From Candidatus Woesearchaeota archaeon (GTDB lineage Archaea > Nanobdellota > Nanobdellia > UBA10117 > JABICX01), in the NCBI GenBank assembly GCA_018692915.1, contig JABHLG010000006.1, positions 5,627 to 69,626 on the forward strand: a DNA stretch of 64,000 nt, written 5' to 3'. The notes beneath the pieces are model-generated. The model was not told where the DNA came from. It saw only the letters and a list, made by a program, of their open reading frames with translations, and did no database searches. Made by a program: the position numbers and the translations under genes. Shown here piece after piece: positions 12,945 to 53,867 of this stretch; the first letter of the stretch is position 1; the number at the start of each line of letters is the position of its first letter.

Positions 12945-14312
12945 TTACATTCCAGGTAGTTTCATACCACCGGGTAAGCCACCTTTGCCACCCATCATTT
13001 TAGCTAATTGCTTCATCTTTTGAGGGCTGCCCATTGACTTCATCATTTTCTGCATCTGCTTGTATTGCTTAAGTAATCCGCGCACTTCTTTTTCATCAGT
13101 GCCCGAGCCATTAGCGATTCTGTTGATTCTAGAAGCATTCATAACATCAGGATTTTCCTTTTCTGTTGGAGTCATAGATTGCATAATAAATTTCCATGTT
13201 TTCATTTTGCTTTCTTGACCTTTAAGCGCATCTTTTGGAACTGCTCCACCCATTCCAGGTATCATACCCATAATTTGTGAGAGCGGACCCATTTTTTGCA
13301 TTGCTTCCATTTGATCATATAAATCTTGAAGTGAAAGTCCTTGACCTTTTGTAACTTTCTTAGCTAATTTCTCAGCTTTATCTTTGTCAATTGCACCTTC
13401 TGCTTTTTTTAGAAGAGTTTCTAAATCTCCCATTCCAAGAATTCGAGATACAAAGTTCTTTGGCTTGAACTCTTCAATTGCATCCATTTTTTCTCCAACT
13501 CCAATAAACATAACTTTTGCTCCAGTAGTTGCGCAAGCTGTTAATGCACCTCCACCTTTTGCAGTTCCATCTAGTTTTGTAATTACAACACCTGTAACTC
13601 CAACGTTTTTGTGGAAAGATTCAGCTTGAGATTGTGCACCTTGACCAATGTCTCCAGAAAGAACTAGAAGTGCTTCATCAGGATTTACTGCTTTATTTAA
13701 CACCTTGATTTCATCTGTTAGCTCTTTGTTTAGAGAATCTCGTCCAGCTGTATCAATTATAACAACATCATATTTTTTGAATTCCTTTTCAAATTCTTTG
13801 ATTATATCTTCAGGTTTTTTAGCAGATGAATTTCCATAAAAATCAACTTTCATTGCTCTAGCTAGCTGCTGTAGCTGTGCATATGCAGCAGGTCGCCATG
13901 TGTCTGTTTGAACAACTGCAACTTTTTTACCTTGTTTTTTATAGTATCGTCCAAGTTTTCCTGCAGTTGTTGTCTTTCCAGACCCAAATAGACCAACTAG
14001 CATTATCTTAGTTGGCTTTTTCTTAAATTCAATCTCTTTGAACTCTTTTCCAAGGAAGTTAGTTAGTTCTTCAAAAACAATATTTACAACATGCTCGCGA
14101 GTTGTTAGACCTTTTGGAGGAGTTTCATTTGTTCCTCTGTCTCTGATTTTCTGAGCAATTTCTTTAGCTAAAGTAATATTAACATCAGCTGCTATCAATG
14201 CTTTTTTGATATCAGAAGATAATTCAATAACTGCTTTTTTATCAACTAGCCCTATATTAGTTATTTTCTTCAAACTTTCCTTTAGTCTATCTGATAATGA
14301 GTCTAATACCAT
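12945..14312 (-). CDS. srp54: Signal recognition particle protein SRP54
   Basis: N domain, G domain (GLFGSGKTTT, DTAGR, TKLDG) and a Met-rich M domain. Confidence 0.95.
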   Translation of the reverse strand: MVLDSLSDRLKESLKKITNIGLVDKKAVIELSSDIKKALIAADVNITLAKEIAQKIRDRGTNETPPKGLTTREHVVNIVFEELTNFLGKEFKEIEFKKKPTKIMLVGLFGSGKTTTAGKLGRYYKKQGKKVAVVQTDTWRPAAYAQLQQLARAMKVDFYGNSSAKKPEDIIKEFEKEFKKYDVVIIDTAGRDSLNKELTDEIKVLNKAVNPDEALLVLSGDIGQGAQSQAESFHKNVGVTGVVITKLDGTAKGGGALTACATTGAKVMFIGVGEKMDAIEEFKPKNFVSRILGMGDLETLLKKAEGAIDKDKAEKLAKKVTKGQGLSLQDLYDQMEAMQKMGPLSQIMGMIPGMGGAVPKDALKGQESKMKTWKFIMQSMTPTEKENPDVMNASRINRIANGSGTDEKEVRGLLKQYKQMQKMMKSMGSPQKMKQLAKMMGGKGGLPGGMKLPGM

Positions 14313-14329
14313 ACTTTTTAGCAGAAATG

Positions 14330-14350
14330 GAGGTTTTTAAGTGCTTTGAT
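14330..14350 (-). promoter_or_regulatory. Promoter block shared by srp54 and ftsY (TATA-like TTAAAAAC)
   Basis: gaggtttttaagtgctttgat begins 18 nt upstream of the srp54 ATG. 20 of 21 nt match 18928..18948, which sits at the same spacing from the ftsY ATG. Confidence 0.55.
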
Positions 14351-14406
14351 TAGAAGATTATAACCGTTAATCTTATAAACTAGTCATTACACAGTAGCAC
14401 TATAGT

Positions 14407-16410
14407 ATGACACTTTCAGAAGTAAAAAATTCGGTTCAAGAAACTATATTTCTTAAAGACCGTATCAAAACAAGTCTAGAAAAAATAATTAAGTTAAATA
14501 AAGAGATAGATCCTGGTGATGACGGATATAAACGATTTGTTAATGCTAAGTCTGATGATATAATGCCATATGTTCAATCTAACTGGACTGATCTTGATGA
14601 GGCTTCGCTGGTTAATGATAGTCAAGTGATTTTATTTGGAGATACCAATCATGCAAAAACAGGTAATATTGGCGGTATGGCAAAGTATATACCTCTTTTG
14701 AAGAAAGCAGGAATTACTGATGTAGCTATTGAGTTTCCAAGAGATGAGAAGAATCTCGAAGCAGTTACTCAGTTTAATGAGACTGGAGACTTGTCTCTGA
14801 TACGACCTATTGCAAATCAGACAAGAACACCTGTACGAATTGTTAGATTTTTTAGAAACGCACATCAAGAAGGAATGAATGTATCTTTAATAGATATGCC
14901 TGAAAAATCTCGGGATTCAAAATGGAGCACTACCCAACTTAACTATCAAAGAGGAATATATATGGGCCAAGTTCTTTCTGAGTTAGCTGAAGATTCTAAT
15001 GTTAAAATTGCGGCTTTTTGTGGTGCGGGACATTTTAGAGAAAAAGAAATACCGAAACAACTAACTGATGATAATATTGCATTTAAGAAATTTGCAGTTG
15101 TTACTCAAGGACAACCTATGTCGTTTATACTTCCAGATAATCAATATGAGATCGGCCCAGCAAATGCAGTAAATAGATGTGATTTATCTAATCGTAGTGG
15201 GTTTGTTGATTTAAATAATAATTACGATTTAGATGGATTTATATATTTTACAAAATCTAGTCTTATTGAGGATCAGAAATCTGCTAAATTAATTCTTGAT
15301 GATATTTCTAGTATTATCCCTTCTGTAGATGCACCAAAAGAAAACGCATTAGCACATTTAACTGGAAGCACAGCAATTCAAACAATTTCACAGCATTTTG
15401 GAAATCGTGTGGATCCATCATTATATACCTGGGAAGGCACAAATACTGAAAAGATTTATGATTTTGTAAATAATATTGACAGTCTAAATAATGGACAGAA
15501 ACTTCATCTATCAATTATGCTGGAGAATTATGTTCGTACTACTCTGCGTCATGGTGGAGGTTCTATACTTAGAATGGAATTTGATTCAGATGCAAACGCA
15601 TTTGGTATAGATACTATTGATACTTTTGGAAAGAAATTTGATGCAGAAGAGTATGCTGCTGCACGTGGAAAACACAGAGAAGTTACGTTAGATATGTTAC
15701 TTTCACAATATAATTTTGAAGACATAATGATTAAAGACGTAAGTCAAATACCTGAGACAGATATTTTACCTAATCCAGAAAATCTAGAAAGTGCACATAA
15801 GGTTATGATATTAATGTCTGCGTATGCGACGCACCCAGAACGGATTACGTGGGCAAATGATCGAAGTACACCTATGATTGGAGTTTATCGGGAAGGAAAT
15901 CATAATGATGATTATATTACTCGACTTGGTATTGAAGATTTTCTATTAACTGATATGGAGAGCAAGCTAGTTGATTTTGAAAAAAAGAATTCCGAGTACA
16001 CTCATAATATGGATAAGTTAAATACATTATTCTATTCATTTAGTAAAGATAAAGCTCTTTCTTTTAGTTATCGTAAAAAAGTGAAAAATTATAGCAGTGA
16101 GTTCATAGCCATATTTAGTGATATTATTTATGCAAGCAATAATGTAACGCGTAAGATAATTAATGCTCGATCTGAGCTACAGTATCTTAGTAACGATTCC
16201 GCAGAAACGCTGATTGAAAATGCTTATAACAAATTAGAAACATATAACGCAGTTATTAATAATGTGGCAGATGTTATGGATAAGAAAAATGTCTATCGAG
16301 GCAAATTTTTTGAAAATGATCTTGACTTTAAGCAGATTATTCAGGATAATCGCGAAATGGTTAAAGATTTAAGAAGTAATCTTAATGACATCAGAACATC
16401 GCTTAATTAA
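14407..16410 (+). CDS. Hypothetical 667-aa protein (cassette X1); N-terminal region has ChaN/Tiki-like motifs
   Basis: ILFGDTNHAKTG ... VAIEFPRDE ... AAFCGAGHFRE resemble the GExH / GxGH pattern of the ChaN (haem-binding uptake)/Tiki/erythromycin-esterase fold. The rest is orphan. Unverified. Confidence 0.45.
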   Translation: MTLSEVKNSVQETIFLKDRIKTSLEKIIKLNKEIDPGDDGYKRFVNAKSDDIMPYVQSNWTDLDEASLVNDSQVILFGDTNHAKTGNIGGMAKYIPLLKKAGITDVAIEFPRDEKNLEAVTQFNETGDLSLIRPIANQTRTPVRIVRFFRNAHQEGMNVSLIDMPEKSRDSKWSTTQLNYQRGIYMGQVLSELAEDSNVKIAAFCGAGHFREKEIPKQLTDDNIAFKKFAVVTQGQPMSFILPDNQYEIGPANAVNRCDLSNRSGFVDLNNNYDLDGFIYFTKSSLIEDQKSAKLILDDISSIIPSVDAPKENALAHLTGSTAIQTISQHFGNRVDPSLYTWEGTNTEKIYDFVNNIDSLNNGQKLHLSIMLENYVRTTLRHGGGSILRMEFDSDANAFGIDTIDTFGKKFDAEEYAAARGKHREVTLDMLLSQYNFEDIMIKDVSQIPETDILPNPENLESAHKVMILMSAYATHPERITWANDRSTPMIGVYREGNHNDDYITRLGIEDFLLTDMESKLVDFEKKNSEYTHNMDKLNTLFYSFSKDKALSFSYRKKVKNYSSEFIAIFSDIIYASNNVTRKIINARSELQYLSNDSAETLIENAYNKLETYNAVINNVADVMDKKNVYRGKFFENDLDFKQIIQDNREMVKDLRSNLNDIRTSLN

Positions 16411-16656
16411 TTAAAGCATTTTCTTTAATAATTTTTTAGGGTTAAATATTTCTAAATCTTTGTATTCTTGCCCTGTTCCACAGTCTCTAATTTTCTGAGC
16501 AATTTCTTTAGCTAAAGTAATATTAACATCAGCTGCTATCAATGCTTTTTTGATATCAGAAGATAATTCAATAACTGCTTTCTTATCAACTAGACCAATA
16601 TTTGTTATTTTCTTCAAACTTTCTTTTAGTCTGTCTGATAATGAGTCTAATACCAT
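16411..16656 (-). pseudogene. In-frame chimera: first 58 codons of srp54 fused to the last about 22 codons of ftsY
   Basis: 16484..16656 matches 14140..14312 (7 of 173 mismatches, all synonymous). 16411..16479 matches 17849..17917 (4 of 69 mismatches). The junction lies at a tgttcc microhomology. Confidence 0.85.
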
Positions 16657-16681
16657 TAAAATAAAGTAAATTTTAGTTTTA

Positions 16682-16700
16682 TAAAGAAGACGAATTGAAG
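16682..16700. repeat. 19-bp perfect direct repeat, copy 1
   Basis: taaagaagacgaattgaag, identical to 17423..17441. Confidence 0.8.
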
Positions 16701-16702
16701 TA

Positions 16703-16975
16703 TTAATGTAAATATTTCAATAGACCTTTTGCACTATTTAATAATGTATTAAATCTAAAATCTTTGAATTCATCAGATATTGAGTCACAATCATTAATTA
16801 ATTCTGTCAATTCAGATTTAGTATTTAGATCGTTGACTTTTTCTATGGCTGACGAATTAATTGTACCATCTTGATTTGTTCCATGTTCGATATAAGATAA
16901 GTTATATGTAGCGAAAGCTAATCTTCCATATATTTCTAAAACTTTTTTCACCTCATCAGATGAATATTTTTTCAT
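16703..16975 (-). CDS. Hypothetical protein (cassette X2)
   Basis: 90-aa ORF, no motif recognised. Confidence 0.3.
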   Translation of the reverse strand: MKKYSSDEVKKVLEIYGRLAFATYNLSYIEHGTNQDGTINSSAIEKVNDLNTKSELTELINDCDSISDEFKDFRFNTLLNSAKGLLKYLH

Positions 16976-17008
16976 TTAACTGTACTAAATAACACTTTTT
17001 AAAGTCTT

Positions 17009-17425
17009 TTGATGTGTGATTTTATGGGAATAGAAATTCTTATGAAAAATGATTTGGAAAAAGGTGCAGAGATTCTCGAATTTTTTATGAGAAAAAGATA
17101 TTCTGAAGAAATGGATTATGATGTTGATAGAGCTTCTTTTGCGAGTACATATATAATAATGGGTTTAAAACACTCAAAAAATGAAGAGTTAGTTGATAGA
17201 ACTAAAGAAATATTGCGTCGTATAATGAATAATTATATGTTTGATGTAGATAAAGATCAGAGTTATTTATATGAATTGACAACAGTATCAACATTTTACC
17301 GGATTCCAGAAACAACTAATTTTTTAGAAAAAATAAAACAAAGTAATGACTATATAAAATTGAATGATAATTTGAAAGATAGAGTTGAACGATGTGTTTT
17401 TACTTTCGAGCAAGAAAAAAATTAA
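17009..17425 (+). CDS. Hypothetical protein (cassette X2)
   Basis: 138-aa ORF, helical composition, no motif recognised. Confidence 0.3.
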   Translation: MMCDFMGIEILMKNDLEKGAEILEFFMRKRYSEEMDYDVDRASFASTYIIMGLKHSKNEELVDRTKEILRRIMNNYMFDVDKDQSYLYELTTVSTFYRIPETTNFLEKIKQSNDYIKLNDNLKDRVERCVFTFEQEKN

Positions 17426-17441
17426 AGAAGACGAATTGAAG
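17423..17441. repeat. 19-bp perfect direct repeat, copy 2
   Basis: taaagaagacgaattgaag, identical to 16682..16700. The pair brackets the two divergent ORFs 16703..17425. Confidence 0.8.
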
Positions 17442-17462
17442 ATATCGAACTGTTTTTAAAAT

Positions 17463-17852
17463 TTGCCACTGATATTTAATATGTCAGAAATTGTTGATAA
17501 TATTTGGGAAAAAACTCGCAAGATTGCGTTAGAATTAACTATTGAAGATGCTAAAGAGATTGCAAGTGCATTTAAGTTTTTTAATGAAGCAGTTGGTACT
17601 AAGCGAATTAATGATGGAGATTATTTCTTGCATACATTTCTTGCAAATGTAGCTCGTTATCAGACTAAATTTACTGATGCGGAAAAAGATTTCTTGCTAA
17701 ATGATGCTAAAACAGGTAGAGGTCAGACAGAAACAGTTATTTTATGTATATTGAATGAGAATAGTTCTAAACATTTAGAAACCTTGGAAGAAAAGAGAGC
17801 ATATCCAATATATAATGTATTTAGTGATGCGATTAATGCTGCATATCCTTAG
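17463..17852 (+). CDS. Hypothetical protein (cassette X2)
   Basis: 129-aa ORF (non-ATG start in the track). Its stop overlaps the ftsY stop convergently. Confidence 0.3.
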   Translation: MPLIFNMSEIVDNIWEKTRKIALELTIEDAKEIASAFKFFNEAVGTKRINDGDYFLHTFLANVARYQTKFTDAEKDFLLNDAKTGRGQTETVILCILNENSSKHLETLEEKRAYPIYNVFSDAINAAYP

Positions 17853-18910
17853 AGCATTTTCTTTAATAATTTTTTAGCATTAAATAGTTCTAAATCTTTG
17901 TATTCTTGCCCTGTTCCGATGAAAAGAATTGGTTTTCCAGTTTCATAGCCCGCAGAGATTATTGCTCCACCACGCTCATCTGCATCAGTTTTTGCTACAA
18001 TTGTTCCATCAATGTTAATCATCTGAGAAAAGTATCTTGCTTGCTCAACTGCATCGTTTCCAGTTAAAGCATCTACAACTAATATTGTGAAATCAGGATG
18101 AATTACTCTTTTGATTTTCTTAAGTTCGTTCATTAAATCTTCAGAAGCGTGCTGTCTTCCAGCAGTGTCAATCATTACAATATCCAAATTTTTTGCTTTT
18201 GCATGCTCCATTGCATCATAAGCAACAGCTGCAGGGTCTGCACCATATTTGTGCTTAACCATTTTGATTTTTAGATTGTCTGCATGATGTTGTAGCTGCT
18301 CAATTGCAGCAGCCCTGAATGTATCGCCCGCTGCAAATACAACAGATTTTTTATGGTCTTGGAAATATTTTCCCAATTTAGCTAAATTAGTTGTTTTTCC
18401 AACACCATTTACACCTACAAAAAGAATTGTTAATGGCTTCTTGTTCTTTGATTCTGCTAACAAATCAATTTGTTTGGGTTTTGTAAGAACTTCTGTTAAA
18501 ATTTCCTTAAGTTTTTCAGAAATAATTTCTGCACTTGGTTTTTGTTTGTTTTCTAAAAGCTCTCTTTTAACTTCTTCAAGAATTCTTTCAGTAATATCAT
18601 AAGCAATATTATTCTGAATTAATGCATCCCCAAAATCTTCAAGAGCAGATTCTATTTTATCTTCTGAGCGCTTTGCAAAGAAACCTTTTTTCTCTTCTGA
18701 AGGGCCTGTGCCCCCTTCGACCTCCCCCGACTTCTGCGAAGTCTCCTCCAAAGGTTTATCTTCTCGGTGAAATCTTGCTGCTATTCTTTCCTTGAGGCTC
18801 TTTTTTTCTTCCTCAACAGGTTTTTCTTCTTTAATTTCTTCCTTAGGTTCCTCTACTTCTTCAACATCTTTCTTAAATTTTGAAAACGCTTCTTTTAATC
18901 GACCGAACAT
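17849..18910 (-). CDS. ftsY: SRP receptor FtsY
   Basis: K/E-rich A domain, N domain and G domain (GVNGVGKTT, DTAGR, AKTDAD). Confidence 0.95.
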   Translation of the reverse strand: MFGRLKEAFSKFKKDVEEVEEPKEEIKEEKPVEEEKKSLKERIAARFHREDKPLEETSQKSGEVEGGTGPSEEKKGFFAKRSEDKIESALEDFGDALIQNNIAYDITERILEEVKRELLENKQKPSAEIISEKLKEILTEVLTKPKQIDLLAESKNKKPLTILFVGVNGVGKTTNLAKLGKYFQDHKKSVVFAAGDTFRAAAIEQLQHHADNLKIKMVKHKYGADPAAVAYDAMEHAKAKNLDIVMIDTAGRQHASEDLMNELKKIKRVIHPDFTILVVDALTGNDAVEQARYFSQMINIDGTIVAKTDADERGGAIISAGYETGKPILFIGTGQEYKDLELFNAKKLLKKML

Positions 18911-36841: not shown

Positions 36842-37252
36842 GTGAAACAAAAAGGTAGTGCAGCTGAGAGAGAATTAGTAGCAATGTTCTGGGGAACAGG
36901 TAACTGGAGCTCATTAAGAATTGCAGGAAGTGGAAGAATGAATTTTCCAAGTCCTGATGTTTTGGCAGGTAATGGTTCACAGATTTTTGCAATTGAAGTA
37001 AAAAGCACAAAACACAAGAGCCAATATATTGATGCAGATCAGATTCAGCAATTGAGAGACTTTGCAGAAAAGTTTGGAGCAACACCTTTGGTTGCAGTTA
37101 AGTTCTCAACAAAATGGCACTTTTGTAGCCCAGATGACATGAAGAAAACCACTTCTGGAAAGCACGTTCTACATAAAGAAAAGCATAAAGATATTGTAAA
37201 GCAGTTTGAAGAAGTTATTTCACGACGACCAGACCAAATAGCTGAGGAGTGA
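36842..37252 (+). CDS. hjc: Holliday junction resolvase Hjc (C-terminus remodelled by an insertion)
   Basis: GSAAERELV...GSG....PDVLA...IFAIEVKS (E...PD...ExK of Hjc), with a GTG start. The last 12 codons read into inserted sequence. Confidence 0.8.
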   Translation: MKQKGSAAERELVAMFWGTGNWSSLRIAGSGRMNFPSPDVLAGNGSQIFAIEVKSTKHKSQYIDADQIQQLRDFAEKFGATPLVAVKFSTKWHFCSPDDMKKTTSGKHVLHKEKHKDIVKQFEEVISRRPDQIAEE

Positions 37253-37288
37253 AGCGATGTGAACTGTCGCAGTCAGTTCACTGGAGAG
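37217..37288. repeat. 72-bp GC-richer insertion with an 8-bp-stem hairpin between duplicated hjc 3' segments
   Basis: Hairpin gtgaactg (37259..37266) / cagttcac (37274..37281). Supplies the current hjc stop TGA (37250..37252). Confidence 0.6.
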
Positions 37289-37354
37289 CAAGTGTTACAT
37301 AAAGAAAAACATGCTCATATAGTTAAACAATTTGAAGAAGTTCTAAATTTGTAA
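37289..37354 (+). pseudogene. Displaced copy of the hjc 3' end (22 codons including the native-looking stop)
   Basis: Encodes QVLHKEKHAHIVKQFEEVLNL*, against HVLHKEKHKDIVKQFEEV in the gene (37163..37216). 12 of 54 nt differ, 8 at third positions. Same reading frame as hjc. Confidence 0.8.
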
Positions 37355-45755: not shown

Positions 45756-47516
45756 ATGAAGACGGTTTATGTAGCTCTGATATTTAGTCTTGTATTATTA
45801 GTTAGTGGATGTGTTGATTATTTACCTTCAATTGGTGGAGGAACAGATAATGTCGGAGTTGTAGGTTTTGTAGGTGGAGATAATGGTGTAGTTGTTTCAT
45901 TTGTTGGAAATAATCCTCCTGCACGAGTTTTCCAAAATAATAATTTTAATGTTGTTCTTCAATTAGAAAATAAAGGTGAAAATGATATTGATGCAGGAGA
46001 TATACGCGTTTTAATTAGTAATATGCAGAACTTTGGACTTGAAGATAATATTGTTAAATATAATGAAAATCTTATACCTAAGAGAATAAAAACAGAGGCA
46101 GGTTTTATTCCTGGCGGCATTGATTATATTAGTTTTGATGATGTTGCTTACTCAGGACCTGCTATGATTACAGAAGATTCTCCGATTTCTATTGCAGTAG
46201 ATGTTTGTTATCCTTACAAAACCACTGCTGTTGCAGATATATGTATAACAAGAGAGCGCGATGAAACTGTATGTGATCCATTTGGAAAGCCAAGTGTTCA
46301 GACAAGTAGTAGTCCAATTTTAATTACAGGGATTACTCAAATGTCAAACGGTTTAATTAGAACAGACAGTGATGATGTTTTGTTAGATATACGAATTGAT
46401 TTCGAAATGGTTGGTGATGGAGAAATTTATAATTCAGATTCAACATGTTCAGAATTAGTTATTGATGATATTAATGTTATTACAATTGATCAAATTACTC
46501 TTGGTGCAGATATTTATAATAATGATAACGTTACTAAACTTTGTGGATATAATGATAATAAAATTGGATTAGATGAAGATGGAAATGGTTTTGTGATATG
46601 TTCAATTATGGTTCCAAACGTTCCTTTTGATTTTGAAGATAGGTTTACAATTACTACAAGTTATATGCATACTCAACTTTTAACTCAGAAAATTGCAGTA
46701 ATGCCTGTTCTTGAATCAATGAGAACTTGCACAATCTCAACAGATTGCGAGGTTAATGAATATTGTGAGCAACCAGGTTTCTGTAGAGCTAAAATTGCAA
46801 CTAAACAAACTTGTGGATTGCCTGTAGAACTTTTAACTGGCGAGAATTCAGATGTATCTTGCATGAGTGGTTTTTGTGGAAGTGGTTATTGCACAGGAAT
46901 TGCAGATAATTCTGAAGTATATCGGAGTTTAATTTGTGAAGAAGGACTTGTTATTGTAGAATATGATTTTGAAAAAGACCCCGGTCATAATAATTTAGAA
47001 TATTATGGTTGGACACCATATTTAACTGAAGATACAACTTTTATTGGTAGTTATTGTTCAGGTGAATCTGAATGGGTAATGTCTGCAGATTTAGGCTATC
47101 AATCAGGGCATGGATTATATACCATAGCAAAATTAAATGATAGTGAAATTAATTATTGTGTGAATTCTGAGAAAATACTTGTTCCAAAAGATGCTAACTT
47201 GAAAGTTAGTTTTATGTCTAATTTCCAATTAGATGGAGGTAGTGAAGATAGTGTAAGTGTTCTATGTGCTACTTCAGATAATTACAAACATTTAGGGAAA
47301 TTCCCTGGTATAATTGGCGAAGGCGATAATACTAAACGTTCTAGTGTATGGCCTGGAAATGAAGATGGTTGGGTTAAATTTGAATATGATATCCCAGAAG
47401 AATGTATTGTAAATGATAGAACAGAATTGTTATTTTCAGCAGAAATCGACTCAGAGAATCTTAATGATCCCGTTGCAATCGATGATATTAAAGTTCAAGT
47501 AGATAGTTGTAATTAA
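45756..47516 (+). CDS. Lipobox-bearing secreted protein with a Cys-rich module and a MAM/ConA-like C-terminal domain
   Basis: Signal peptide ending LLVSGCVD. The paralogous N-terminal domain has NVVLQLENKGENDI and VCYPYKTTAVADICI. Cys-rich region is CTISTDCEVNEYCEQPGFC...CMSGFCGSGYC. The C-terminus ...DPVAIDDIKVQVDSCN is MAM-like. Confidence 0.45.
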   Translation: MKTVYVALIFSLVLLVSGCVDYLPSIGGGTDNVGVVGFVGGDNGVVVSFVGNNPPARVFQNNNFNVVLQLENKGENDIDAGDIRVLISNMQNFGLEDNIVKYNENLIPKRIKTEAGFIPGGIDYISFDDVAYSGPAMITEDSPISIAVDVCYPYKTTAVADICITRERDETVCDPFGKPSVQTSSSPILITGITQMSNGLIRTDSDDVLLDIRIDFEMVGDGEIYNSDSTCSELVIDDINVITIDQITLGADIYNNDNVTKLCGYNDNKIGLDEDGNGFVICSIMVPNVPFDFEDRFTITTSYMHTQLLTQKIAVMPVLESMRTCTISTDCEVNEYCEQPGFCRAKIATKQTCGLPVELLTGENSDVSCMSGFCGSGYCTGIADNSEVYRSLICEEGLVIVEYDFEKDPGHNNLEYYGWTPYLTEDTTFIGSYCSGESEWVMSADLGYQSGHGLYTIAKLNDSEINYCVNSEKILVPKDANLKVSFMSNFQLDGGSEDSVSVLCATSDNYKHLGKFPGIIGEGDNTKRSSVWPGNEDGWVKFEYDIPEECIVNDRTELLFSAEIDSENLNDPVAIDDIKVQVDSCN

Positions 47517-47556
47517 GAATAATATTGTTTTTAACTTAGAGATTTATTATAGTATT

Positions 47557-47610
47557 ATGCAATACATATCTGATTTACATCTTCATAGCAGATTTTCTAG
47601 AGCTACATCC
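47557..47610 (+). pseudogene. Displaced duplicate of the first 18 codons (including ATG) of the PHP-domain gene
   Basis: Encodes MQYISDLHLHSRFSRATS, against MKYIADLHLHSRFSRATS at 47688..47741. 10 of 54 nt differ, 7 at third positions, giving 2 aa changes. Confidence 0.85.
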
Positions 47611-47687
47611 AAACTTTTTCAGAAAAAGTTTGACCAAAAACGCTGCTCATATATAATTTGTATTAAATCGCAGCAGGAGATATATGT
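47611..47687. repeat. Hairpin element, short form (family copy), abutting the ATG of the PHP gene
   Basis: aaactttttcagaaaaagttt (identical to 51078..51098) followed by aaaacgctgctcatatataatttgtattaaatcgcagcagg (compare 51155..51196). Confidence 0.8.
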
Positions 47688-48980
47688 ATGAAATATATTG
47701 CTGACTTGCACTTACATAGCAGATTTTCTAGAGCTACATCTAACAAGCTAGACCTACCTAATCTTGAGAAATATGGTAAGATAAAGGGACTTAATTTGCT
47801 TGGAACGGGAGATTTTATGCATCCACAATGGCAGAAAGAGCTAAAGTCTGAACTAACTACAGATGGTTCTGGAATTTACAAAACAAAGTCAAGATATCCT
47901 TTTGTTCTTTCAAATGAGATTTCTTTAATGTATCGTCAGGGCGATAAAGGTCGTAGAGCACACGTTGTTCTTCTTGCGCCAAATATGGATGTTGTGGACC
48001 AAATTACAGATTACTTCAAAAAATTTGGTAGAGTTGATTATGATGGTCGACCAATATTCGGTAAGAGTATAATTGAAGTTACAGAAGGGCTAAATAATAT
48101 ATCTAATGATATTGAAATAATACCTGCACACATATGGACACCTTGGTTTGGTTTGCTTGGTTCAAAATCAGGTTTTGATTCATTTAAAGAAGCACTTGGT
48201 GACCAAATAAAGCATATTCATTCATTTGAAACAGGACTTAGTTCTGACCCTGAGATGAATTGGCGAGTTTCTGAACTAGATAAATTTACAGCTCTGTCTT
48301 TTTCAGATGCACATAGCCATTGGCCTTGGAGAATTGGTAGGGAAGCAACTTTGTTTGACTTGAAAAATCTAACTTACAAAGATTTAATTAACGCAATTCG
48401 AACACGAGACGGCTATGAAGGAACAATTGAAGTTGACCCTGGTTATGGACGGTATCATCATGATGGACACAGAAATTGTGGAGTTAGTTTCATTCCACAG
48501 ATTTCTAAAAAGTATAATGATATTTGCCCAGTTTGTAAAAAGCCACTTACAATTGGAGTTATGTATCGAGTTGAAGAATTAGCAGATAGGCCAGAAGGAT
48601 ATACACCAAAAAATGCAGCAAAAGTATACAAATTACTACCTTTATCTGATTTGATTTCTGGAGTAGTTGGAACAGGAGTAGCAACGCAAAAGGTTTGGGA
48701 AATTTTCAACAAACTAATTGATAATTTTGGTTCAGAATACAATGTTCTTCTAAATGTTTCTGCAGATGATTTGCAAAAAGTTGTGGATGAAAATATAGTT
48801 CAGTTTATCTTAAAGAATCGTGCAGGTCAGATTGAAGTTAAGCCAGGTTATGATGGTGTTTATGGCGAAGCAATCTTTGGAGAGAAACCACAACCTAAAC
48901 CATTTGTATCTGAACGCCCGGCTAGTATGGAACAACAAAAACAAATAGAAAAACCCCAAAAGAGTTTAACTGATTTCTAA
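47688..48980 (+). CDS. PHP-domain phosphoesterase with an internal zinc ribbon (COG1379-like)
   Basis: ADLHLHSRFSRATS (PHP motif I), HIWTPW, FSDAHS, CPVCKKPLT. The architecture matches the archaeal COG1379 family. Confidence 0.7.
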   Translation: MKYIADLHLHSRFSRATSNKLDLPNLEKYGKIKGLNLLGTGDFMHPQWQKELKSELTTDGSGIYKTKSRYPFVLSNEISLMYRQGDKGRRAHVVLLAPNMDVVDQITDYFKKFGRVDYDGRPIFGKSIIEVTEGLNNISNDIEIIPAHIWTPWFGLLGSKSGFDSFKEALGDQIKHIHSFETGLSSDPEMNWRVSELDKFTALSFSDAHSHWPWRIGREATLFDLKNLTYKDLINAIRTRDGYEGTIEVDPGYGRYHHDGHRNCGVSFIPQISKKYNDICPVCKKPLTIGVMYRVEELADRPEGYTPKNAAKVYKLLPLSDLISGVVGTGVATQKVWEIFNKLIDNFGSEYNVLLNVSADDLQKVVDENIVQFILKNRAGQIEVKPGYDGVYGEAIFGEKPQPKPFVSERPASMEQQKQIEKPQKSLTDF

Positions 48981-49017: not shown

Positions 49018-49395
49018 ATGGTAATTGCAGCACAAGCGCATGAAATAGATAATGACGAAAAAGATAATATAATCGTAAAACCTGATCCGAATATTTGTTC
49101 AGTAGAAAGAATTAGAATCGAGTTCGCAGATAATTATGATTTGCAATTAAGTGGCAACGAGATTTTTAAGAAAACTTTGATAATAAAATATGAACGAGTT
49201 AATAATGGTTATTATGCAATACATGCTGATTTTACAGATAAGAATGGTGAACTTGAGAAAGATATTCGGAAGTTTAAAGCTGGAGAGAAAGGAATACCCC
49301 CAAAAATTTCAGAGCTAGAGTCAGATGTACTTGCTGCATTAAAAGCCGAACCTGAACTAGCTGAGATAGTTGATTTTATGAATCGCTTTGAATAA
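49018..49395 (+). CDS. Hypothetical protein
   Basis: 125-aa ORF, no motif recognised. Confidence 0.3.
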   Translation: MVIAAQAHEIDNDEKDNIIVKPDPNICSVERIRIEFADNYDLQLSGNEIFKKTLIIKYERVNNGYYAIHADFTDKNGELEKDIRKFKAGEKGIPPKISELESDVLAALKAEPELAEIVDFMNRFE

Positions 49396-51003: not shown

Positions 51004-51038
51004 AATAAATTCTAAAATAACAGCTTTATAAAACTTCT

Positions 51039-51077
51039 TAGTTCAAGACTTCAGTAACCTTAGCTTTTATGTCTGCG
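51039..51077 (-). pseudogene. Displaced duplicate of the last 13 codons (including stop) of rps27e
   Basis: Encodes ADIKAKVTEVLN*, against ADIKSKVTEVLN* at 51235..51197. 5 of 39 nt differ, 4 of them synonymous third-position changes. Confidence 0.85.
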
Positions 51078-51196
51078 AAACTTTTTCAGAAAAAGTTTCA
51101 TCACCAAGCTGAACTTTGTTCAGCGAGGCCAAGAAAATCAAAGATTTTCTCTGGAAAACGTTGCTCATATGTGTTGGTGTTCAATCGCAACAATAA
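51078..51196. repeat. Hairpin element, long (composite) form, abutting the rps27e stop codon
   Basis: Left hairpin at 51078..51098. Inner two-hairpin module catcaccaagc-tgaactttgttca-gcgaggccaagaaaatcaaagattttctctgg at 51099..51154. Right arm at 51155..51196. Confidence 0.8.
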
Positions 51197-51409
51197 TTAA
51201 TTTAATACTTCAGTAACCTTAGATTTTATATCTGCTTTTCCGCCTTTTGATTTAGCTAAAAGTTCATCACAAACAAGGCATTTTACATCGCTTGCAGCTT
51301 TTTCGAAAATAATTTGAATATTTTTACATTTAGCACATTTTACTTTTATAAAACTTGAACTTGGACCTTTATCTTTTACCATTTTAGTTGTTCTCCTTTT
51401 GTTTTGCAA
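51197..51409 (-). CDS. rps27e: Ribosomal protein S27e
   Basis: Zinc ribbon VKCAKCKN...VKCLVCDE. The true start may be the internal MVKDKG. Confidence 0.85.
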   Translation of the reverse strand: MQNKRRTTKMVKDKGPSSSFIKVKCAKCKNIQIIFEKAASDVKCLVCDELLAKSKGGKADIKSKVTEVLN

Positions 51410-51445
51410 CTGAAATTTGCAAATTTTTAATTTGTATCATTTTAT

Positions 51446-53752: not shown

Positions 53753-53867
53753 AACCTTGTGAGGTTTAAGAGACATCACCGAGCAAAACCTTAGCTTTGC
53801 GTGGCCAAGAAAACGCAAAGCGTTTTCTCTGGAATTGCATAGCAATTTGATGTATAATAAATTTGCA
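53753..53867. repeat. Hairpin element, long (composite) form, diverged copy, immediately upstream of the primase start
   Basis: Left hairpin aacct-tgtg-aggtt (53753..53766). Inner module catcaccgagc-aaaaccttagctttgc-gtggccaagaaaacgcaaagcgttttctctgg (53774..53832). Right arm aattgcatagcaatttgatgtataataaatttgc. Confidence 0.7.

Follow-up and report, generated by a model that had tools for sequence, protein, structure and literature searches.

How does a housekeeping gene come to be preceded by a displaced copy of its own first codons, with a hairpin-forming element between this copy and the start codon in use? The question is raised by an EndoQ-family (PHP) DNA-repair gene of a Candidatus Woesearchaeota archaeon with a tiny genome, located in a 64,000-nt stretch of contig JABHLG010000006.1 (hereafter the window). 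The coordinates of this locus and of related sites are compiled in Table 1.

The duplicated EndoQ start and its spacer element

Regions 47557-47610 and 47688-47741 encode MQYISDLHLHSRFSRATS and MKYIADLHLHSRFSRATS, respectively, and were recovered by a direct-repeat search as a repeat of 57 nt with 82% identity and a spacing of 131 nt. A recount of the differences between both gene starts (C1 and C2) agrees with an earlier reading made from the sequence alone (hereafter the sequence-only reading): 10 of 54 nt differ, seven of these at third codon positions, and the only amino acid changes are Q/K and S/A. Likewise, a copy of codons 1-18 displaced to a position upstream of the element, the element directly in front of the functional ATG, and a dead-end ORF of 44 codons running through the element (47557-47691), all proposed in that reading, were confirmed. 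The last 26 nt of C1 (47584-47609) are identical to the last 26 nt of C2 (47715-47740), and this run adjoins the junction. The translation of C1 corresponds to the N-terminus of P0004. In total, the added unit comprises 131 bp, consisting of a 78-bp non-coding modular hairpin element and the substitute first 18 EndoQ codons. The gene starts 13 nt past the terminal stem of the right arm of the element, and the right-arm/C2 junction reads GCAGCAGGAGATATATGTATGAAATATATTGCTGAC. Homologues of the gene carry the source names "endonuclease Q family protein", "TIGR00375 family", and "DNA helicase UvrD", and the Pfam family is PF27218.

Table 1. Position, strand, and characteristics of the features at the EndoQ locus and at further sites in the window.
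Feature	Position	Strand	Remark
Native leaderless promoter box TTTTAA	47529..47534	+	starts at -28 of the stub ATG, intact
Native EndoQ 5' end, displaced (copy C1, codons 1-18)	47557..47609	+	contiguous with native upstream context
44-codon stub ORF reading through the element	47557..47691	+	TGA overlaps the EndoQ ATG (ATGA)
Hairpin 1, 10-bp stem and 3-nt loop; outer (left) boundary of the inserted DNA	47610..47632	.	core 21-mer, covarying closing pair
Linker ACCAAAAAC	47633..47641	+	NATCAAAAAC as family consensus past the hairpin
Terminal stem-loop of the right arm (GCTGC...GCAGC)	47642..47674	.	compensatory changes
Candidate element promoter TATTAAA	47661..47667	+	at -27 of the functional ATG, inside the terminal loop
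GGAG, putative ribosome-binding site for reinitiation	47676..47679	+	8 nt upstream of the ATG
Replacement 5' end in current use (copy C2)	47688..47740	+	first 27 nt diverged, next 26 nt identical to C1
EndoQ-family (PHP) gene, 430 aa	47688..48980	+	homologue names, Pfam PF27218
Hjc 3' end version	37155..37342	+	functional end, hairpin, displaced end
Displaced native 3' end of S27e (ADIKAKVTEVLN*)	51038..51076	-	identical to L122 at all 5 differing sites
Long-form element: hairpin 1, two more hairpins, terminal stem-loop	51077..51196	.	absent in L122, L011, and L012
Replacement 3' end of S27e in current use (ADIKSKVTEVLN*)	51197..51235	-	differs from the stub at 5 sites
Partial long-form element (hairpins 2 and 3, terminal stem; without hairpin 1)	53776..53846	.	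upstream of the primase ATG

An assembly artefact, in which the gene starts of two strain variants would have been placed one behind the other, has practically no probability left. Related lineages do share a sample (ERZ27250245 yields L001, L012, and L122), but the identical EndoQ gene is present on 19 contigs from ENA, NCBI (GCA_018646145.1), JGI, and Logan assemblies, and the sequence of stub, element, and gene is the same at all 10 loci compared (L001-L010). The structure is thus reproduced across assemblers, samples, and repositories, including a deposited MAG, and since these 19 contigs were assembled independently, an artefact is excluded. The co-linearity of the two copies, for which the sequence-only reading had proposed a check, is borne out by these short-read assemblies. 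Moreover, the intervening element is a genuine member of a family that is present elsewhere too.

The 21-nt hairpin AAACTTTTTCAGAAAAAGTTT occurs exactly twice in the window, at 47611 and 51078, as compared to 0.04 occurrences predicted from shuffled sequences, and the previously proposed identity to 51078..51098 is an exact 21-nt match. Its full size is 23 nt due to an additional closing pair, which is c47610/g47632 at EndoQ, g51077/c51099 at S27e, and a-t in L110; of 136 unique contexts, 113 have a Watson-Crick pair at this flanking position. Because this pair covaries, the TCC/TCT "difference" at codon 18 represents the first base of the element. The element proposed at 47611..47687 (77 bp) is therefore present, but spans 47610-47687 and measures 78 bp. 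A tail matching NATCAAAAAC follows the hairpin in 49 of 133 unique contexts, and the terminal stem shows compensatory changes to GTTGC/GCAAC at S27e and GCTAC/GTAGC in L110. Copies of the hairpin family were found in 105 metagenome and 56 genome stretches; the window contains two full and one partial copy of the element. In every case compared the left end of the element is precise, while the bases 5' of the hairpin vary (TCC, GCG, TCT, ATC, CAC, AAC). The element lacks inverted copies at its ends, with hairpin 1 on the left and an unrelated stem-loop followed by 13 nt on the right. An Rfam scan of the whole window gave zero matches at or above the gathering score, ARAGORN identified no tRNA genes in the window, and a literature search (hairpin sequence; MITEs in Woesearchaeota/Methanosarcina; DPANN introns) returned nothing describing the element.

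Across the window, TATA-like hexamers, whose positions were measured directly, form a peak between -28 and -26 relative to the ATG, pointing to leaderless mRNAs. The native promoter box upstream of the stub is conserved at the same distance in the relatives L011, L012, L120, and L122. The TATA-like catatataatttg, thought earlier to lie about 30 nt upstream of the functional ATG, is in fact located at -40 to -28 and thus too far upstream. By contrast, the position of TATTAAA in the terminal loop fits the peak, although the equivalent loops of S27e and L110 are not TATA-like. Judged from this position, it is plausible that the element supplies a promoter for EndoQ, which would then be expressed as a leaderless mRNA from the TATA-like box at -27. 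Read-through from the native promoter combined with termination-reinitiation would be an equally good alternative, since the stub TGA overlaps the real ATG and GGAG is situated 8 nt upstream. In that case, transcripts from the old promoter would be translated through the 44-codon stub ORF, with reinitiation at the ATGA.

Empty sites and the native copy

Three syntenic relatives have an empty site, including one with a 93% identical EndoQ. The spacing between the upstream gene and EndoQ amounts to 46, 101, 34, and 44 nt in L011, L012, L120, and L122, respectively, as compared to 171 nt here. Aligned by MAFFT to L122, which served as the close outgroup (85.5% DNA identity over 10 kb and 93% amino acid identity of EndoQ), the window contains blocks of 125 nt and 159 nt of its own that are located exactly at the EndoQ and S27e elements. 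A comparison of the orthologous locus in relatives had been suggested in the sequence-only reading, which also held that the stub retains its upstream context; the relatives bear this out, with the stub corresponding to the native start.

For polarisation of the differences, one close and three distant outgroups were available. Within the first 27 nt, C1 deviates from L122, L012, and L011 at 3-4 sites and from L120 at 9 sites. C2 deviates at 8 sites from L122, the closest relative of the window, but at only 4 sites from the more distant L120, a lineage with 78% amino acid identity overall, whereas the 36 nt beyond the C2 repeat are identical to L122. In case of EndoQ, the stub agrees with L122 at 6 sites, and at most 3 sites point the other way. 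In case of S27e, it agrees at 5 of 5 differing sites, so that in total 11 of 14 changes fall on the functional copy. The probability of this polarity ranges from P = 0.029, if the functional copy evolves as fast as the stub, to P = 4e-5, if it evolves four-fold slower. In addition, an almost identical strain with an empty S27e site (JGI 3300072015, contig of 34,157 bp, spacer of 34 nt) possesses an S27e that is identical apart from the displaced-end site and ends with ADIKAKVTEVLN, i.e., the stub version. As judged from these sequence comparisons, the outgroups show the upstream stub to be the native EndoQ start with its promoter and the functional start to be an imported, diverged copy. A simple insertion with target duplication is thus unlikely.

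The gene-end repeats (53, 39, about 27, 59, and 62 nt; 75-87% identical) consist of coding sequence only and begin at the start or stop codon, with an offset of 1 nt at EndoQ and of 0 nt at S27e, L110, and L125. Repeats that begin at a start or stop codon argue against a target-site duplication; they are expected if the similarity reflects homology of coding sequences between lineages. The stub may itself be under selection, because it is located between promoter and element. A mutational signature in the differences (retroelement-like adenine bias) was considered and rejected, as the substitutions are mixed.

Related arrangements in the window and in other lineages

The order native stub, hairpin 1, right arm, and functional end was observed at EndoQ, S27e, L110, L125, and L155 (AlaRS), and in all five the right arm is directed toward the functional gene terminus, the orientation that the sequence-only reading had stated for EndoQ. 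The L155 junction is without an identical run. The window shows this gene-end layout at the 3' end of Hjc too, and other DPANN archaea have it at AlaRS and further genes.

P0132, the S27e of the empty-site strain, ends exactly as the S27e stub. All five differences of the replacement end are derived relative to L122, and four of them are synonymous. A Campbell-type crossover in the longest identical S27e run was rejected, as the functional copy accounts for all five differences, which are located on either side of the run. The read-through ORF of the S27e element, searched by HMMER against 1.84 billion representatives, gave a single match to a repetitive protein of 1176 aa that was judged spurious.

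In case of Hjc, the functional end carries an 11-codon tail (ISRRPDQIAEE*), followed by a different hairpin at 37259-37281 and a displaced end (..KQFEEVLNL*). The two alternative 3' ends have non-homologous tails, and for each of them natural ends of other lineages provide a match. L181 shares the Hjc tail and the hairpin, but the displaced end and the junction differ. At the primase site, the partial element is not accompanied by a gene-end repeat, and L122 keeps only a 16-nt remnant there. At SRP54/FtsY, foreign cargo is flanked by a chimeric ORF whose parts meet at a GGAACA microhomology, and the four cargo ORFs of the larger insertions there are without Pfam match. The 125-aa gene at 49018-49395, absent in L122, L011, and L012, was inspected as a further case and dismissed, because no duplicated gene end was seen.

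Beyond gene ends, the hairpin occurs within tRNA introns (Ser, Glu, Leu, Pro) of DPANN contigs (aragorn -i), where it is probably a passenger, and in a 16S rRNA helix loop of other DPANN contigs. In Methanosarcina (L160 and L127), a 33-nt intergenic junction is present in two or three copies with a 31-nt version of the element between them, and L131 contains a tandem unit.

Origin of the added unit

Recombination with diverged DNA, in which a homologous exchange inside the gene is combined with non-homologous joining at the hairpin foot, is the preferred origin, to which we give about an even chance from the sequence comparisons. The donor would have been DNA of a diverged relative with a hairpin element already beside the gene start. 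A donor strand would pair with the resident gene, and the homologous exchange would be resolved within the first 27-53 nt. The donor tract would end at the foot of the outermost hairpin, which may block a nuclease or polymerase or serve as a cleavage site, and the joining of this end to codon 18 of the resident strand would proceed without homology. Since such a join would lie inside the paired region, both gene starts would be kept, and the resident start and its leaderless promoter would be pushed upstream as a non-functional stub. The same process would account for the 3' ends of S27e and Hjc and for the larger SRP54/FtsY insertions. The empty sites, the polarity, the similarity of C2 to L120, the repeats beginning at codon edges, the Hjc tails, and the constant orientation all suggest such an import. 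C2 is foreign-like and the sequence past the repeat native-like, with 0-3 nt of possible microhomology at the hairpin junction. Inter-lineage recombination is also frequent here, as seen in the mosaic EndoQ P0006 and the SRP54/FtsY chimera. Counting against import, a tract of at most 27-53 nt is unusually short for homologous exchange, and the 33-nt repeats in Methanosarcina look like a mechanistic target duplication. A donor configuration for EndoQ, with the element beside a C2-type start and without stub, was not found. Furthermore, a junction that is always located at the same hairpin foot implies a specific end-processing step that is absent from ordinary illegitimate recombination; it fits a dedicated enzyme better and speaks against the ordinary process. 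It is tempting to speculate, although we consider this doubtful, that the unit represents an undescribed selfish archaeal "gene-end replacement cassette", i.e., a hairpin-bounded module with the substitute start or stop region of one housekeeping gene and promoter or terminator signals. It would spread horizontally between lineages by homing via its own homology, with the hairpin as the active joining end, and would leave a stub each time.

A MITE-like element with a long, variable target-site duplication (27-62 bp), whose copies have since diverged in place, is unlikely. The family, in which NATCAAAAAC usually follows the hairpin, is widespread and multi-copy, its left end is precise throughout, and both the 33-nt junction repeated around the 31-nt element of L160/L127 and the tandem unit in L131 would fit. 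However, divergence in place predicts more change in the unconstrained stub, whereas the opposite was observed (the 11 of 14 changes given above), and the almost identical empty-site strain carries the stub version. Also at variance are the start of the repeats at start or stop codons, their variable length, the non-homologous tails of the Hjc copies, the lack of terminal inverted repeats, and the absence of a transposase match to Pfam among the ten ORFs scanned, which include the four SRP54/FtsY cargo ORFs. The same scan yielded no integrase or recombinase, which weakens a further, likewise unlikely explanation, the insertion of a miniature non-autonomous integrative element, i.e., of a 131-bp attP-like cassette inserted at the homologous gene end by a recombinase encoded elsewhere. 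In its favour, the 26-nt identical stretch of both EndoQ copies adjoins the junction, the incoming copy restores a complete gene and displaces the resident end, the orientation is constant, the same Hjc cassette displaces different resident ends in two lineages, and the SRP54/FtsY insertions are larger and carry cargo ORFs. On the other hand, the 131-bp unit is non-coding and far smaller than any known substrate circle, the junctions of different targets share no common core (see the variable bases 5' of the hairpin above), and the inferred S27e crossover comprises only 5 identical nt. IMG/VR viral contigs scanned for the hairpin and the long-form right arm gave unrelated matches only and no copy of the element, and a virus or plasmid carrier was therefore rejected.

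Very improbable is an RNA-level element, related to bulge-helix-bulge introns or small RNAs, that is removed from the EndoQ transcript and renders the DNA duplication phenotypically silent. The same hairpin does occur in the tRNA introns and the 16S rRNA helix loop, and its stems show compensatory changes. Yet both element boundaries lack a bulge-helix-bulge (a 4-bp helix between two 3-nt bulges); two relaxed matches were found in the region, both away from the boundaries, versus a background of 9.6 per 320 nt. In addition, Rfam matches are missing in the window, the hairpin palindromes fold equally well on either strand, and direct repeats cannot pair to bring splice sites together.

Integrative elements with a replacement gene end in attP are known from phage 21 and e14 in icd of E. 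coli (3' end) and from tRNA-targeting islands. Here as there, incoming DNA provides a diverged functional terminus, the resident terminus becomes a displaced partial copy, and the differences are mostly synonymous. By contrast, the present units consist of 78-120 bp of hairpins without integrase, affect several unrelated housekeeping genes at the 5' or the 3' end, and are joined at a hairpin foot instead of a conserved core. Homology-facilitated illegitimate recombination, described in Acinetobacter, Pseudomonas stutzeri, and Streptococcus pneumoniae and to our knowledge not demonstrated in archaea, likewise combines one homologous anchor with one non-homologous joint and adds foreign DNA beside the anchor, and the GGAACA junction of SRP54/FtsY resembles a textbook case. 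It differs in that the illegitimate end is here always the same structural feature and the outcome is a duplication, not a replacement or deletion. Bacterial palindromic repeats (REP/BIME, Correia/NEMIS, Rickettsia RPE, and PATEs) are similarly short, multi-copy, hairpin-forming, modular, and located at gene boundaries; they may carry promoter-like or terminator-like signals, and, as in RPEs, the element leaves one reading frame open. We know of none, however, that makes 27-62-bp repeats of a neighbouring gene end, and the present element is without terminal inverted repeats, fixed target sequence, and fixed duplication length. PATEs derived from IS200/IS605 insert 3' of a conserved tetra- or pentanucleotide without duplication, whereas here the 5' bases vary and a long repeat is present. 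Archaeal bulge-helix-bulge introns share the identical hairpin within DPANN tRNA introns, but here the boundary motif is lacking and the host is the start of a protein-coding gene. In the displacement of T6SS effectors in Vibrio cholerae, a new gene end is recombined via a conserved region and the old end is left as an orphan (PMC5361080). As with the "orphan" C-terminal modules of Rhs/CdiA, the orphaned old end keeps part of the conserved region. These are polymorphic toxin loci under diversifying selection with immunity genes, whereas the present cases concern housekeeping genes with nearly synonymous changes and a hairpin spacer.

If recombination with diverged DNA is the correct explanation, hairpin elements in ultra-compact archaeal genomes would mark sites at which DNA of diverged relatives was spliced in, with ends of essential genes being swapped together with promoters or terminators. 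Inter-lineage recombination in uncultivated DPANN archaea would then be recorded in a form readable from sequence, it would be explained how insertions are tolerated where intergenic spacers measure only 30-45 nt, and a hairpin-dependent step in the processing of DNA ends, amenable to biochemical tests, would be indicated. As regards annotation, gene callers are expected to produce spurious short ORFs and wrong starts at such loci.

Duplicated start of the EndoQ-family gene

The EndoQ-family (PHP) gene of this Woesearchaeota (DPANN) archaeon is a long ORF of 430 aa starting at 47688 (MKYIADLHLHSRFSRATS). Its homologues are named endonuclease Q family protein, TIGR00375 family or DNA helicase UvrD, and Pfam-A gives only a sub-threshold PHP_C match. 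As described in the sequence-only reading, a displaced copy of the first 18 codons (47557-47610, MQYISDLHLHSRFSRATS) precedes the gene and is followed by a 77-nt stretch; in a repeat search of the window the pair appears as a 57-nt direct repeat of 82% identity with a spacing of 131 nt. The recurrence of the hairpin is likewise borne out, the 21-mer AAACTTTTTCAGAAAAAGTTT being present exactly at 47611 and 51078 (0.04 matches expected after shuffling). The reported count of 10 differences in 54 positions, seven of them at third codon positions and with Q/K and S/A as the only amino acid changes, holds as a raw figure, but one of these, TCC versus TCT, is the first base of the element, because hairpin 1 is actually 23 nt long with a covarying closing base pair. 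All nine true differences fall within the first 27 nt, and the following 26 nt are identical between the copies.

An identical EndoQ gene is found on 19 contigs from independent assemblies and repositories, and the sequence of stub, element and gene is the same in all 10 fetched loci. An assembly artefact is thus excluded.

The element is a chain of hairpins. In its long form, hairpin 1 is followed by two others and then by a terminal stem-loop; the two in the middle are missing from the short form at EndoQ. The closing pair of hairpin 1 is c47610/g47632 at EndoQ and g51077/c51099 at the second site; L110, a locus from outside the window, has a/t. Of 136 unique contexts, 113 show Watson-Crick pairing at these flanking positions. 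Compensatory stem changes occur among copies, with the terminal stem present as GCTGC/GCAGC, GTTGC/GCAAC or GCTAC/GTAGC. The element folds equally well on both strands, so DNA and RNA structure are not distinguishable. Rfam contains no match, and a protein search with the read-through ORF of the S27e element returned no genuine relatives. A partial long-form copy, in which the stem of hairpin 3 is longer, is located upstream of the primase gene; at this site only a 16-nt remnant is present in L122, the closest syntenic relative, and the window shows no gene-end repeat.

Coordinates of displaced gene ends, elements and neighbouring features in the window
Feature	Position	Strand	Remarks
Nested SRP54/FtsY duplications	14130-17917		
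Chimeric SRP54-FtsY ORF	16411-16656		
Hjc alternative 3' ends	37155-37342		two, non-homologous tails
Hairpin behind Hjc functional end	37259-37281		GTGAACTG...CAGTTCAC
Divergent end of gene upstream of EndoQ	46800-47549		last ~750 nt of 586-aa gene
Box retained by EndoQ stub	47529-47534		TTTTAA, at -28 of stub ATG
EndoQ stub	47557-47609		
Window-only block at EndoQ	47581-47705		125 nt
EndoQ element	47610-47687		short form
Candidate promoter box	47661-47667		TATTAAA, from -27, within terminal loop
EndoQ copy in use	47688-47740		
Additional ORF	49018-49395		125 aa, between EndoQ and PAC2 genes
S27e stub	51038-51076	minus	own stop codon
Window-only block at S27e	51072-51230		159 nt
S27e element	51077-51196	minus	long form
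S27e functional 3' end	51197-51235	minus	
Insertion	51383-51444		62 nt, between L44e stop and S27e start
Partial long-form element	53776-53846		hairpins 2, 3 and terminal stem, no hairpin 1; 33 nt upstream of primase ATG (53743, minus)

Displaced ends at other genes and the resident copy

The same layout occurs at the 3' end of S27e and in three loci from other genomes or metagenomes, namely L110 (stub REFQKLKK* versus functional REFQKTKGK*, with a near-colinear long-form element), L125 (VCGIRKI* versus MCDGIRKI*) and L155 at the 3' end of AlaRS (ARGKIEDIEALKKMINS* versus ARGKIENKDALKEIIKN*). In these loci as well as at EndoQ, the order is constantly stub, hairpin 1, right arm, functional end and gene body, and the repeats begin at a start or stop codon. 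In case of Hjc, the functional end ISRRPDQIAEE* is followed by a different hairpin, and the displaced end finishes with LNL*, abutting the stop codon of the convergent neighbour gene. Both tail types occur as natural ends in other lineages. In L181 (1800-2000), a locus of the related P0003 lineage, the long Hjc tail and the hairpin are the same, but the displaced end (KEKHLHITKQFEELLESLD*), which looks intact, is another one, as is the junction.

Comparison with orthologous loci revealed that the EndoQ insertion is absent from all four syntenic relatives. EndoQ is separated from its upstream gene by 171 nt in the window versus 44 nt in L122 (93% EndoQ aa identity) and 46, 101 and 34 nt in the more distant L011, L012 and L120 (77, 76 and 78%), respectively. 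In a MAFFT alignment of about 10 kb with L122 (85.5% identity), each of the two window-only blocks amounts to a single repeat unit, one per element. In L012 (4900-4950), the upstream neighbour of EndoQ has related hairpins (caaagttcagaaactttgcgagg...) right behind its stop codon, without a gene-start repeat.

With L122 as outgroup, the EndoQ stub agrees with L122 at six differing sites (codons 3-8) and the copy in use at no more than two real sites, at which the stub agrees with other relatives instead; the S27e stub agrees with L122 at all five differing sites. Taken together, 11 of 14 changes lie on the functional copy (P 0.029 if it evolved at the rate of the stub, 4e-5 if four-fold slower). 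A strain with an empty S27e site (34-nt spacer) encodes an S27e equal to that of the window except for the end ADIKAKVTEVLN, the exact translation of the S27e stub. Furthermore, the first 27 nt of the EndoQ copy in use differ at four positions from the more distant L120, the closest sequence, and at 7-9 from L122, L012 and L011; the stub displays the opposite pattern. On this comparative evidence, the stub is the resident gene end, and the functional end a short foreign-looking tract brought with the element. The 36 nt directly 3' of the EndoQ repeat are identical to L122. The contig of the empty-site strain (JGI 3300072015, 34,157 bp) also encodes a mosaic EndoQ, P0006, whose first ~245 residues are nearly identical to the protein of the window and whose remainder is diverged; the upstream spacing is 171 nt as in the window, with extra genes downstream. 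To judge from its sequence, this mosaic is evidence for frequent recombination among co-occurring lineages.

Origin of the displaced ends

Most likely, the displaced ends arose by one-sided recombination with diverged DNA. DNA of a diverged relative, with a hairpin element beside a gene end, would pair with the resident gene. Homologous exchange would take place on the gene side; on the other side the donor tract would stop where the outermost hairpin has its foot, and this end would be attached, with no homology involved, to the resident strand somewhere within the paired region. Such an event would explain why the boundary is precise at the hairpin, why repeat length varies, why the functional end is foreign and the orientation constant, and why the junctions always lie within the gene and never in the tiny spacer. 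A repeat onset at the start or stop codon is expected as well, because the similarity would be coding-sequence homology between lineages. All observed repeats are only 75-87% identical, which may be due to survivorship, since identical repeats at a spacing of 130 bp would soon disappear by recombination or replication slippage.

Weak points of the recombination origin are that the donor configuration for EndoQ was not found, that the imported tract is very short, and that a junction which never departs from the hairpin points to a dedicated step. In addition, a 33-nt intergenic junction is repeated in Methanosarcina around a 31-nt version of the element, with three copies in L160 (380-530) and two in L127. 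Situated between a glutaredoxin-like and a ferredoxin-thioredoxin-reductase-like gene, this junction takes in stop codon, ribosome-binding site and the start of the following gene, and its repetition has the look of a true target duplication. On these grounds two alternatives are retained. Transposition with a long target duplication is unlikely; a staggered cut at a random place would not be expected to yield repeats that begin at start or stop codons. A miniature integrative cassette dependent on a recombinase in trans is marginally less likely still. Other Methanosarcina loci contain long arrays of related hairpins.

Phage 21 and e14 at icd are integrative elements that bring their own gene end, and in outcome the displacement described here is alike. 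The outcome also resembles toxin-tip displacement at Rhs, CDI and T6SS loci (PMC5361080), and the likely mechanism homology-facilitated illegitimate recombination. Among known classes, a MITE was rejected due to missing terminal inverted repeats and fixed duplication length, an IS200/IS605-derived element due to the lack of a conserved target sequence at the hairpin insertions, an integrative element as no integrase was found among the ten ORFs scanned with Pfam, and a bulge-helix-bulge intron as the element boundaries lack the motif. Hairpin gene-end displacement, for which no description was found in the searchable literature, is recurrent, follows rules and hits essential genes.

In the SRP54/FtsY region, the 5' end of SRP54 (183 nt, 95% identity) and the 3' end of FtsY (69 nt, 94%) are duplicated in a nested fashion, and the copies flank two blocks of cargo ORFs (667, 138, 129 and 90 aa) without Pfam match. 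Between the blocks lies a chimeric ORF in which SRP54 codons 1-58 are fused, at a GGAACA microhomology, to the final 23 codons of FtsY. By its arrangement the region looks like a larger, cargo-carrying form of gene-end displacement, and it supports hybrid (homologous and non-homologous) recombination in this genome.

Hairpin distribution, EndoQ expression and neighbouring loci

The exact 21-mer was found in 105 metagenome and 56 genome stretches, including Methanosarcina, Micrarchaeota, Diapherotrites, Woesearchaeota and several bacteria; some bacterial matches resemble ordinary AT-rich terminator hairpins and may reflect convergence. The tail NATCAAAAAC is common to 49 of 133 unique hairpin contexts. 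The identical hairpin, usually with this tail, resides in tRNA introns on DPANN contigs (tRNA-Ser, Glu, Leu and Pro; L038, L093, L096 and L072/L177), and on contigs of Micrarchaeota, Diapherotrites and Woesearchaeota the loop of a 3'-domain 16S rRNA helix contains it (L156, L094, L019).

In 17 of 46 genes in the window, a TATA-like hexamer has its start between -28 and -26 relative to the ATG, a sharp peak according to which most mRNAs are probably leaderless. As had been proposed, the stub keeps the upstream context, including such a box (TTTTAA, at -28); four relatives have one equally far from the gene. The TATA-like box assigned to the copy in use at about 30 nt before the ATG actually extends from -40 to -28, too far upstream for the leaderless promoters here; TATTAAA in the terminal loop, whose AT content exceeds that of the S27e and L110 counterparts, is a better promoter candidate. 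Alternatively, with the native promoter intact, EndoQ might be expressed by termination-reinitiation through the 44-codon stub ORF, which crosses the element in the sole frame without a stop: its TGA overlaps the EndoQ ATG (ATGA), with GGAG 8 nt upstream. The T5 run of hairpin 1 is not necessarily a transcription terminator, as T runs are very common in the genome (374 runs of at least five T on the plus strand of the window).

The ORF between the EndoQ and PAC2 genes has no Pfam match, and inspection showed no duplicate of a gene end. L122, L011 and L012 lack this ORF, and both genes converge directly there. Within the insertion in front of S27e, which is likewise missing from L122, lies the palindrome TTGCAA-CTGAAAT-TTGCAA; a 7-nt direct repeat (CATTTTA), in which the start codon of S27e is contained, borders the insertion. 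The end of the gene upstream of EndoQ shares ~60% identity with L122 compared to 80-97% in the rest of the 10-kb alignment, and the gene ranges from 392 to 668 aa among relatives; it represents either a hypervariable protein or a further imported tract ending at the EndoQ promoter.
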